Shown here one piece after another: positions 3,068 to 57,971 of a stretch of 64,000 bases of DNA. Both the position numbers and the translations under genes were made by a program. Source of the stretch: Amphiscolops sp. MND2022 (taxonomy: Eukaryota); assembly GCA_964187785.1 (NCBI GenBank), contig OZ076409.1, positions 19,532,001-19,596,000 of the forward strand. Direction: 5' to 3'. How positions within the stretch are numbered: position 1 is the first letter of the stretch; every line of letters starts with the position of its first letter. The notes below the pieces were generated by a model. The model ran no database searches. It was not told where the DNA came from and saw only the letters and a program-made list of their open reading frames with translations.

Positions 3068-6000
3068 GTGGTATCATTGGGTGTGCAACAGCGCTGAGGG
3101 TGAAGCAGCGGTTGCCTGTCTCCCTGAGGGTGGCCCTGGTGGAAAAGGAGTCCCGAGTGGCCTTGCATCAGAGTGGCAGGAACAGTGGGGTAATTCACAT
3201 GGGACTATACTACAAGCCCCACTCTCTCAAGGCCAAACTGTGTCAGGAATGTAGAATCCCTTAAAGACACCACTTCACATTGCATTTTGTAGCTACAAGT
3301 TTCAACATGTTTCATACACTGCCTGTGTTTCAAGACACACTCTCGAACCGCAGGCCATTTGGCCCAATTTAGAGAGCCTTTGGGGAGGAGATTTCAGGGA
3401 AACAGTGACATAAAGGACATACAATTAACAATATCAAGAGCTCTTTTAAGAGTGGGCTCAATAATGTTCTAAGTTGAATTCTTTTCTTTTAAAAAAAATG
3501 ATGTCGGTTCTACTTTCTTTCATTGGCCCAGGAAGGTGCTCGGAAGGCGTTCGATTACTTTCATGAGAATAACATTGCGTACAAAAAGTGTGGAAAGCTG
3601 GTAGTTGCCGTGGATCAGTCGGAGTTGGATCGTCTGGAAAAGTTGTTCAACAACAGTCTCGACAATGAAGTGCCAGATGTGCGCATGTGCGAGAATTTGC
3701 AACAGATCCAGAGCATCGAACCCAATTGCCAGGCAGTGAAATGTTCTAAGTTGTATCCCAACAGTGTTACCTGTTGACAAGTTTCCGCCATTTGTTCCAC
3801 GATTGAATTTCTTTCTGGGCTGATCCAAAATTTTTTCATCCGTTAGGAATTAAATTAAGAACTTTTGGTAATTCGGAAATCATCAGTTGCTAATGAGCAA
3901 ATTGCAAAAAGTCACAATAAGTGTAGAATTCCTCTTTTTTTACAATCATGCAATTTGCGCAGCTGATGTTTCCAGTCGGGACAGTGAAGTTGTGCAAAAT
4001 TGAAAGCATTTAACGTCAGTACAAATCATTCATATGGTTGTTGAAAAGCATTCAACCATTTGACGTTACAAATTTGTTAAATAGTGTGACTTGTCGAGAA
4101 CTGTAATCTTCCTGTGATGGATGGATTGTTTATTATGTCGCCACTCGAGGTGCAAATCTTGTCCAAAAAATATCGATCTTTCATGTAGTTTTGCGAAGAA
4201 AGTTGGCGATGAAGATGTTGAAGTCTCGTTTTAGTTGGAGTACGTTAGTTTAGATTTTTACAGCTCATTTTTTCCAAGATTTTAGAATGATTTCTAAATC
4301 GAAACTTATCAGGAACTTCAGTAAAATCATGGGGGTAGCGTTTCACAAAAATTTGAGCCAAAATAGACCAAAAGTGAGTAAAACCTCAATTTTGACCTAA
4401 ATTTGGCTAAAAATGGCCTATTTAGTAGTTGAAAATGACGTGACGTATATTTTCATCTATAATTTTCAACAAACATATTTTAATGTTTTAATAATATCAC
4501 TACTGTAATCGGTGGATGTGTGTTGAATAGCTGGTATTCATGAAATGGTAACTGCCTGGCTGGGTGTGTAGGGACTGGCTGCCATCTACTCGCCTCACAC
4601 TTCTGTTGTGGACTGGGCCCAAATCACGCGCTCCTTTGCACACAAGTTCCACTCTCTGGGAGGAGAAACATTTCTCTCATTCCAAGTGTCTCGTATCCAC
4701 AAAAGTGAGCATTTCCCCGTTAAAGGAAAGGCAGACAGTGTTGGCCGGTTAAAGTACCAGTTTAAACTGAAATTTAAACCGATGTTTAAACTAAAAGCAT
4801 CCGAAATTAAACTCAGTGGTTTGAAGAAAAGTTTCAACTAGCTAAATGATTTAAACTACAATTGTCATTCTAGATTGTTCACTTTTGAATCTTGTGAATT
4901 CTATGCAACGTTTTGATCAAATGAACACTGGGCGGCCTGAGACAGAAAAGAGGAAGCTTTTCAGCCTTATTTCGAGCACGATACAGCCTTGAACGCCAAA
5001 AATACAAAGTTGCCGCATCTCTCCACCTGGAATGACTGCAAAAAATAACGTGAGTCGTGGAGAAGACCATTTCATGAGGAACCACGACCAACAGAGATTG
5101 AAGATAGAGGAAAGAAAGGTGTGACAAGAAGCAACTACGGGTACCCTCCAGTTTCCAGACAATTACAGAAAACAAGAATTCTTTAAATATAGCATTATGA
5201 ACAAGGGTTGGTAGAGTGGATATCATCCTCATGATAGCAAAAAGTGCAGGTGCTCAATTTCAAGACTGTTCCGATTACGAAATCAAGTTAGGTCAGAAGA
5301 AGTCATGCATATATTTACTAAGGTTTGGGTCGTCAAAAGAGTATTGGCTTCCAATCAGACAACTGTACCGCCATGGTGCTCAATGCGTTTCTGGTTCTAG
5401 AAATGAAAATACTTCTGCTGTGAGCTGCGATGAAATTGAGTGATTGGAGAGGAATCTGTTTATTTCGGCCAGTTCATTGGTTTTGGGGCACAGAACGAAC
5501 AATTGTATAATTGTTGCCTTTGAAACTATGCCTCTCTTTGCTCAGATGAACATTTTTTTGCAACGAAAATAACGGTTTTAAGTTGTGCGCAACAAGATGG
5601 TATGGACATTATTACCAACTTAAATATGCTGTCGAACTTTTGTCGGAAGTCGGAACCTAGCAAATACAGTTTATTGGACAATTTAGCATTAACACAAATG
5701 TTCAAATTCCACGAAAAACTAATCCAATTCTCCAGATTATTTTCGTTCCTTTCAGTGAACATGCGCCCCCTGCTCTATCATGCGCCCTCCTAAATCGTCG
5801 AAAAGCTTCCGAGTTTTTTTCAAGGATGATTCACAGAAGCAACAAAATTCATCCTTGGTTCCCCAGATACATTTCGGATGCTGAATGTAAACGAACGAAG
5901 ATGCGATTAATATGGTTTTTAACACTGCTAGTTTTTAACAACTTCATTGATGACTGATTTGGAAAATTAGAAACTTTCATCGAGAACATGCCTCATAACA

Positions 6001-57971: not shown

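Follow-up and report, generated by a model that had tools for sequence, protein, structure and literature searches.

Introns with GG, GA, and GC donors that probably derive from hAT transposon insertions in an acoel genome

A class of introns with non-canonical donors (GG, GA, and GC), whose two ends are complementary to one another, very probably represents insertions of hAT transposons that became introns in the acoel Amphiscolops sp. MND2022, given the match between the paired arms and the terminal inverted repeats (TIRs) of these elements, and a geometry that restores the reading frame. These introns occur in a window of 64,000 nucleotides (nt) of the contig OZ076409.1 (positions 19,532,001 to 19,596,000; assembly GCA_964187785.1, 1.07 Gb), which contains three genes on the forward strand, assigned through Pfam to L-2-hydroxyglutarate dehydrogenase (L2HGDH), a tetraspanin, and the mitochondrial elongation factor G (GFM1). 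All of the junctions discussed here, in the window and elsewhere, are predicted from protein colinearity or the reading frame.

A sequence-only reading of the window had claimed that seven of its 21 introns are not GT-AG, that four of the donors share the motif AG|GNATGT, and that many of the introns, including GT introns, have ends that pair. Protein colinearity and the open frames obtained after splicing all 21 introns bear out the first of these claims, and the second also stands; the claim of pairing divides according to the donor. When the pairing of each donor (-5..+15) with its own acceptor (-35..-3) was compared with its pairing with 218 other acceptors, five of the six window non-GT donors ranked in the top 1% of the alternatives, while the exception, the GCTAG donor at 48923, ranked at 18% and is unpaired. 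The probable GT-GG intron at 8190 ranked at 1.4%, and the GT introns cited in the earlier reading ranked at 4.6% (4705), 8.7% (47497), and 15% (45131).

An independent sample was obtained from 15 dynein heavy-chain genes (600 kb), in which the junctions were derived from reference proteins, with an AG acceptor as the sole requirement, blind to pairing. The 292 junction groups were reduced to 198 introns by the exclusion of 65 groups with fewer than three references, six without an AG, 20 that were ambiguous (among them another CAG|GGATG intron, whose right arm lies at offset 16), and three with non-G donors. The donors of the 198 introns are GT in 188 cases, GC in seven, GG in two, and GA in one. 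The 10 non-GT introns pair with their own acceptors far beyond expectation (z=-5.8; 0/20000 permutations), whereas the 188 GT introns present no excess (z=-0.3), with flat percentiles and no peak at offsets 3-30. True pairs are thus more complementary than non-partner pairs in the introns with non-GT donors, and not in those with GT donors, and the pairing is a property of the former. The possibility that the pairing of intron ends is lineage-wide and found in most introns, including GT-AG, might draw on the rank of the intron at 4705 and on a single dynein GT intron in which 10/11 positions match at offset 21, but only six of the dynein GT introns have at least 8/11 arm matches, in comparison with 8.7 expected by chance, and this explanation is extremely unlikely; general pairing in GT introns was rejected on the basis of this sample.

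The four GCTAG donors of the window and dynein genes stand apart as a class without a stem. Each of the remaining 12 non-GT introns has an exon-terminal AG, and a T at -5 is found in 4/12 of these, in comparison with 152/188 GT introns. The window is richer in non-GT donors than the dynein sample (6/21 vs. 10/198; Fisher p=0.002), and its rate is therefore no guide to the genome as a whole. The relaxed recognition of the +2 position postulated in the earlier reading is supported at a level of approximately 1.5% GA/GG donors (3/198 dynein introns), without a change in U1 opposite +2.

The arms of the paired introns have the consensus CAGG(G/C/A)ATG...CAT(C/G/T)CCTG, a TIR of the form CAGGNATG, mostly perfect over 8-15 bp. 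The pattern CAGGVATGT..N80-500..ACATBCCTG..YAG was found 293 times in the genome, compared with 16 matches for a reversed control, and many of the matches are repeated AT-rich elements. Among 20 fetched matches, a target-site duplication (TSD) of 8 bp was intact (8/8) at four loci, two of which share the same flanks, and matched at 7/8 at two others. Overall, a TSD of 8/8 was found at the loci L161, L165, L176, L182, L218, L227, L229, and L240, and around an element of 1491 bp with CAGGGATG TIRs. This latter element contains fragments of a broken hAT transposase, DUF659 (E=4e-8) and Dimer_Tnp_hAT (E=2e-4), and is the one element that links a transposase to these TIRs; a search for the hAT dimerization domain matched 150 of the 150 candidates scored. 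Similar copies were found at unrelated sites: L182 resembles L218 and L229, L163 and L212 belong to an 11-member cluster, and L200 resembles L224. According to the available text of the respective sources, the TIR of the maize Ac/Ds elements is C/TAGGGATGAAA, with an 8-bp TSD (PMC3260210), and TSDs of 8 bp are typical of hAT elements (PMC3355664). Judging by these sequence features, the paired arms are hAT TIRs. The legacy of transposon-driven intron gain that the sequence-only reading had proposed is thereby supported and made specific: a hAT element with the TIR CAGGNATG and an 8-bp TSD, of which three nucleotides are kept, and an acceptor located 11 nt beyond the element.

The process by which an insertion becomes an intron would be simple. 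A hAT element with the ends CAGG(G/C/A)ATG...CAT(C/G/T)CCTG would insert into an exon, with the duplication of 8 bp, as shown for the fresh copies. The first three nucleotides of the element (CAG) would remain exonic, and the next base would become the intron +1, so that the +2 position would be whatever base the TIR carries. The acceptor would be the host's own NAG, immediately after the second copy of the TSD, 11 nt (8+3) past the right TIR. By frame arithmetic, the three nucleotides gained and the three replaced would leave the length of the mRNA unchanged, and insertions that happen to lie before an NAG would survive as introns.

This geometry is supported by a genome-wide comparison of spacing. 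The TIR followed by 8 nt and CAG was found 56 times (control 20), and the TIR followed by 9 nt and CAG, 30 times (control 12); four of the former and 14 of the latter were left unfetched, several of these being repeats already represented, and one further 8-nt match is a window intron. The join at CAG|G keeps a frame of 234 nt open in 30/51 of the 8-nt matches, in comparison with 1/16 of the 9-nt matches (Fisher p=3e-4) and 8.8% of random joins. The donors of the 30 open-frame matches are GG in 21 cases, GC in five, GA in three, and GT in one, and for 21 of the 30, no alternative GT-AG pair lies within 15 nt. When the GT at +5/+6 of the TIR was taken as the donor, no frame was open in the seven 9-nt matches examined, and this candidate was rejected. 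One of these loci (L172) divides a kinase domain in the catalytic loop, at HKDLKP/DN, with Pfam positions 60-126 followed, colinearly, by 128-194. Locus L182 has a GA donor and a perfect TSD, and is 78-87% identical to two non-exonic copies, so the creation of introns looks recent or ongoing.

In the window, six introns on the forward strand have paired arms. The GA-AG intron 3247-3531 (feature 3244..3531) has a left arm CAG|GAATGTAGAA that begins at 3244, and a right arm (3508-3520) that stops 11 nt short of the 3' splice site, with a TSD of 3/8. Two introns with a GC donor have an offset of 13 nt: 3733-4571 (feature 3728..4571), in which arms of 10 bp (3728-3737 and 4551-4560) finish in a CTG 13 nt before the 3' splice site, and 6721-7266 (feature 6716..7266; arms 6716-6727 and 7244-7255), in which an A at -3 lies opposite a T, where the consensus TIR has C opposite G. 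The GC-AG intron 13755-16497 (feature 13751..16497) has arms of 11 bp (13751-13761 and 16477-16487), an offset of 11 nt, and a TSD of 1/8, while the GG-AG intron 44686-45110 (feature 44681..45110) has arms of 12 bp (44681-44692 and 45090-45101) with the TIR CAGGGATG, the same offset, and a TSD of 4/8. The sixth, the probable GT-GG intron 8190-8863 (feature 8188..8863), has hAT-like arms (8188-8201 and 8831-8844; 12/14), with the donor at CA|GT and an offset of 19 nt; its GG acceptor is a single case, which could alternatively reflect a base error or mutation. The seventh non-GT-AG intron, 48923-56821, is the stemless GCTAG case. With TSDs of 1-4/8, the window introns are older than the fresh insertions.

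The boundaries of these introns fit the related proteins closely. The introns at 3247, 3733, 6721, 8190, and 48923 are gap-free in relation to these proteins, the junction of 44686-45110 reads QIKAAIR, where a relative has QIKEAIR, and 13755-16497 is supported by the open tetraspanin frame and the Pfam matches. It might be supposed that the insertions are unspliced at these sites, and represent broken alleles, assembly errors, or introns removed through a nearby GT-AG junction (the GT at +5/+6 in the TIR, for example). In-frame GT-AG alternatives are available close to each of the six window donors and in 9/30 of the open-frame matches; the GT-GG acceptor stands as one case, and, with segments of GFM1 duplicated elsewhere, the active copy may be another than that in the window. 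The canonical alternatives, which the earlier reading had named as a possible refutation, nevertheless fit less well. At 3247, the GT-AG option replaces a glycine present in all 110 matched homologues (10 of the 120 had no match to the motif), while that at 3733 adds one residue to a spacer of four amino acids in all 107 matched homologues (13 unmatched). The option at 44686 loses the QIKxAIR match, and the nearest in-frame AG at 8190 removes six residues that the closest relative has conserved. The invariant residues or spacing are thus broken at 3247, 3733, and 44686, the L2HGDH gene is intact across four such introns and its searched exon has a single match in the genome, and a contrast such as that between the 8-nt and 9-nt matches would be expected only under selection for splicing at CAG|G. 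The absence of splicing at these sites is a decidedly unlikely explanation.

Several further points weigh against the derivation of these introns from hAT insertions. An arm at offset 11, with at least 7/11 matches, was found in 5/12 of the protein-called introns with donors other than GT and GCTAG (background 1.8%; binomial p=1e-6), but the offset was itself derived, in part, from the window introns included in this test. Offsets of 13 (3733, 6721, and one dynein intron), 14 (another dynein intron), and 19 (the GT-GG intron) also occur, and would require later small indels or other elements, and 3/7 of the dynein introns with donors other than GT and GCTAG have no arm at offsets 11-14. The frame is not open in 21/51 of the spacing matches, which may reflect short exons or chance, the control suggesting that approximately 20 of the 56 are due to chance. 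The TSDs of the window introns are decayed (1-4/8), five of the stem introns (all except 13755) match none of the fetched elements, and a genome-wide search with 44683-45099 yielded duplicates of the gene and two weak, partial matches, and nothing else. The hAT origin of the window introns therefore rests on the sequence of the TIRs and the geometry. Two near-identical genomic copies of the 44686 intron were considered as separate insertions and rejected, given that they lie in duplicated GFM1 segments. These two additional copies of the segment (G000:C12:37480800-37482080 and G000:C10:52940120-52959540; 97-98% identity) both have an added insertion at one and the same site in the intron (approximately 0.5 kb and 18.7 kb long, respectively), and one has CAA in place of CAG before the donor.

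The arms of these introns appear to outlast the duplications that flank them. In the five offset-11 introns, the arms match at 32/40 positions, and the adjacent TSDs at 17/40 (p=0.001). Where the 8-nt TIRs of an element are perfect, the TSD reaches 7/8 or better in 2/24 of the elements with an open frame, and in 10/18 of those without (Mann-Whitney p=0.002). In 18 open-frame elements whose TSDs match at no more than 4/8 positions, TIR positions 10-14 (outside the requirement of the search pattern, and equivalent to intron +7..+11, outside the donor consensus) pair at a rate of 0.58 with their own partner and 0.35 with those of other elements (0/20000 permutations), and the former value is close to that of the fresh elements (0.61). 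The TSDs of the same 18 elements match at 0.33 (own) and 0.26 (cross), and positions 17-24 show no pairing specific to the partner. The persistence of complementary repeats while the TSDs decay suggests selection for an RNA stem.

Whether a selected stem acts in splicing appears, from these comparisons, to be a question with evenly balanced answers. These introns pair poorly with U1, and the T found at -5/-6 of the ordinary acceptors is usually missing, so that the TIR duplex, if kept by selection, might be retained because it holds a weak donor beside a weak acceptor. Some donors also appear to drift to GC or GT, with the right arm keeping the older base: six open-frame cases are mismatched opposite +2, and in five of these the donor is GC or GT, with a C or T in the right arm, the pattern that a drift of GG/GA donors toward canonical ones would leave. 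A tentative model, somewhat less than an even prospect, has the hAT TIR recruited as a guide encoded in cis: the right arm would pair across the exon-intron border, within the U1 footprint, and bring the GG/GA donors to a pyrimidine-poor acceptor, so that an unmodified major spliceosome would accept these donors, while the introns would mature from GG/GA to GC and then GT, losing the stem. The juxtaposition of the splice sites by an RNA stem, as envisaged in the sequence-only reading, would thus apply to the non-GT introns, on the evidence of the selective retention of the arms, and not to ordinary GT-AG introns.

The same hAT origin may, instead, be combined with a stem that has no role in splicing, in which case the right arm would be kept either as a single-stranded signal (a branch-like TRAC and the pyrimidines TCCCT) or by the homogenization of inverted repeats at the DNA level, and the tolerance at +2 would be due solely to proteins of the spliceosome, an explanation put forward for the copepod Eurytemora. 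The right arm is often TTGACATCCCTG or TAACATCCCTG, which puts an A near -20, and a pyrimidine is found in the right arm in all six mismatches opposite +2, which also fits a single-stranded signal and counts against selection for a stem. A duplex that covered the 5' splice site would, moreover, compete with U1 and U6, and the three dynein introns without an arm at offsets 11-14 point in the same direction. The contrast between TIR and TSD is also exaggerated, given that low TSD identity was the criterion for the old group. On the other hand, the complementarity at TIR positions 10-14 is specific to each intron, and perfect-TIR elements outside exons mostly retain their TSDs, while exonic ones do not, unlike a general process at the DNA level. 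A stem without a role in splicing is thus a serious possibility, although rather less than probable.

The odd donors might also be read by variant small nuclear RNAs or by a transformed minor (U12) spliceosome. The U1 family is diverse, and in the U12 introns, as in those described here, the pyrimidine tract is missing. The inspection of U1 and U6 that the earlier reading had recommended found no U1 locus changed opposite +2 among 23 loci (42 candidates scored), and a normal U6 (ACAGAGA) in the copies read. The U2 motif (GTAGTA) is normal in the two copies read, although a tandem array saturated this search, so variants could have been missed, and nothing was found over the cut-off for U12 and U6atac among the 43 and 45 candidates scored, respectively, in a search that did not extend to U11 and the spliceosomal proteins. 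U12-type donors have the form RTATCCTT, while those described here are GNATG. A reading by variant or minor-class RNAs is very unlikely. Given the G at +1, the exon-terminal and intron-terminal AG (except for the GG acceptor at 8863), the normal U1, U2, and U6, and the lack of U12 and U6atac, these introns would most likely be removed by the major spliceosome.

A U1 variant with the 5' end ATACTAAC, found at three loci (L014, L020, and L021), is complementary to GTTAGT, and fits the GTTAG and GCTAG donors, including that of the stemless intron 48923-56821, better than the normal U1. GTTAG donors account for 27/188 of the dynein GT introns, in which GTTAGT is the most common donor hexamer (16/188) and 67/188 have a T at +3; coevolution between this variant and the GTTAG donor class is possible. 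In three different U1 subtypes (L008, L015, and L022), a near-identical upstream sequence replaces the first U1 bases, at approximately position 7-8, and looks like an element that targets U1 genes, possibly a Dada-like one. The U2 genes form a tandem array of at least 46 units, while the U6 genes occur in tail-to-tail pairs (G000:C4:81044275-81083745 and G000:C3:315168-319044).

The three genes of the window, all on the forward strand, provide the framework for these introns. The L2HGDH gene (3046..9192) was modelled with seven exons, although its true start may lie upstream, and gives an open spliced frame of 432 amino acids with a Pfam DAO domain; it holds four of the seven non-GT-AG introns. 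The best named matches of its searched exon are proteins of the acoels Convolutriloba macropyga and Symsagittifera roscoffensis (67-68%), with at most 55% in other named animals. The tetraspanin-family gene (9867..16713) was modelled with four exons (Pfam Tetraspanin; open spliced frame of 283 amino acids), and GFM1 (20384..57971), with 12 introns, is supported by Pfam, by colinearity with P0121, and by an open frame of 736 amino acids. The first intron of GFM1 contains a Polinton/Maverick-like element of 17.4 kb (20676-38099), with matches to an rve integrase, DNA polymerase B, and an A32-like ATPase, TIRs that begin with AGTAGT, and a 6-bp flanking repeat (5/6 match). Near its right end, on the reverse strand (36461-37048), is an intronless open reading frame with a ribosomal protein S5 domain (RPS2-like), possibly a captured retrocopy. 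A direct duplication of approximately 1.9 kb (49900-53760) was noted by eye in the last long intron of GFM1.

The insertions described here would provide a concrete origin for GG/GA donors in an animal, in a series that begins with fresh insertions flanked by perfect TSDs and ends with the decayed introns of housekeeping genes. Which insertions become introns can be predicted exactly from the geometry, and the retained TIR allows a direct test of whether the pairing of intron ends can replace the U1 and U2AF contacts in the major spliceosome. If the TIR does act as a guide, continuing hAT activity would steadily supply animals with introns, and might serve as a model for the GA/GG donors seen in copepods and larvaceans. 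In practice, the annotation of this genome would break at a few per cent of its introns, unless GG/GA donors are allowed; such donors represent approximately 0.02% of human introns (figure cited in PMC5714493).

Comparison with known systems places these introns closest to the introners, which are DNA transposons with TIRs and TSDs that make introns, with established GC/GA donors (PMC9860276, PMC12130899, PMC11282704). In introners, one splice site is carried by the element and the other comes from the target, and the length of the mRNA is usually unchanged (PMC9860276, PMC12130899). The fam9 of Polarella glacialis, classified as hAT, has CA/TG termini, an 8-bp TSD, and the donors gt:142 gc:629 ga:208 (PMC12130899), and dinoflagellates (including Symbiodinium) and Salvia are recorded as having hAT families with GA/GC donors. 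The acoel introns share the origin from a TIR/TSD transposon, the combination of one carried and one host-derived site, and the GC/GA donors. They differ in their host, in the location of the donor 3 nt inside the TIR, and in the dominance of GG, whereas GT, GC, GA, and AT donors are expected in PMC12130899. Among hAT places 1-62 of 63, the sole animal family finally classed as hAT is a 6-copy family of Styela, and the available passages on introners do not describe TIRs that outlast TSDs, as in the acoel. Similar copies at unrelated sites, some of which act as introns, are a mark of introners, and were found among the fetched loci, and not for the window introns themselves. No acoel name was found in the available supplementary files of PMC12130899, and no description of non-canonical splice sites from acoels in the available text of PMC13149111 and PMC9911081. 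A literature search whose coverage excluded subscription journals, bioRxiv supplements, and the supplements of PMC9860276 found nothing on acoel non-canonical introns or introners, and the literature searched contained no report of GG-dominated hAT introners in animals.

Among animals, the GA/GG donors of Eurytemora affinis have an obligate exonic AG, an A at +3, a normal U1, and recent intron gains (PMC5714493), and GA/GG-AG introns are also found in Oikopleura dioica (PMC7072748). The acoel shares GA/GG-AG introns, the exonic AG, and the A at +3 with these species, in which such introns reach a frequency of 10-12%, in comparison with approximately 1.5% in the acoel, GA is dominant, and neither an origin nor end-pairing is identified in the available text. 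Just one donor among those shown in the Eurytemora File S1 begins with AG|GAATG, and the same element is thus not evident. The GA/GG donors of that file mostly follow CAG or TAG, and resemble the starts of hAT TIRs (PMC5714493). In Fritillaria borealis, introns with TIRs and TSDs derived from MITEs (miniature inverted-repeat transposable elements) are removed by the U2 spliceosome, with 95% non-canonical ends (AG-AC, AG-AT) and a duplicated U2AF (PMC13326754, PMC11282704), whereas only a few per cent of the acoel introns are non-canonical, and these have G...AG ends.

The nonconventional introns of euglenids have inverted CAG...CTG ends, the pairing of which is required for excision (shown in Euglena), and a MITE origin has been proposed for them (PMC12501133, PMC11282704). 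By our arithmetic, the euglenid spacers of 3+5 nt equal the length of an 8-bp TSD. The CAG is intronic in euglenids, with borders that are not G...AG, while it ends the exon in the acoel, in which the G at +1 and the terminal AG are kept. In place of the euglenid borders 5'-N3-CDG...CHG-N5-6|R, the acoel introns have an exonic CAG (-3..-1), and a CTG that ends 11-14 nt before the AG. The maize Ac/Ds elements share a near-identical TIR core (C/TAGGGATGAAA), the 8-bp TSD, non-autonomous elements of approximately 400 bp, and removal by splicing. Maize Ds1 was reportedly spliced as an intron (Dennis 1988, Wessler 1991), and the Ds cases are said to be single mutant alleles with imprecise splicing at GT donors, in contrast with the many fixed, frame-neutral introns in conserved genes of the acoel. 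What appears to be new here, from the genomic sequence, is the existence in an animal of hAT introners that yield GG-dominated non-canonical donors, with a plausible, although putative, role for the TIR stem in splicing.

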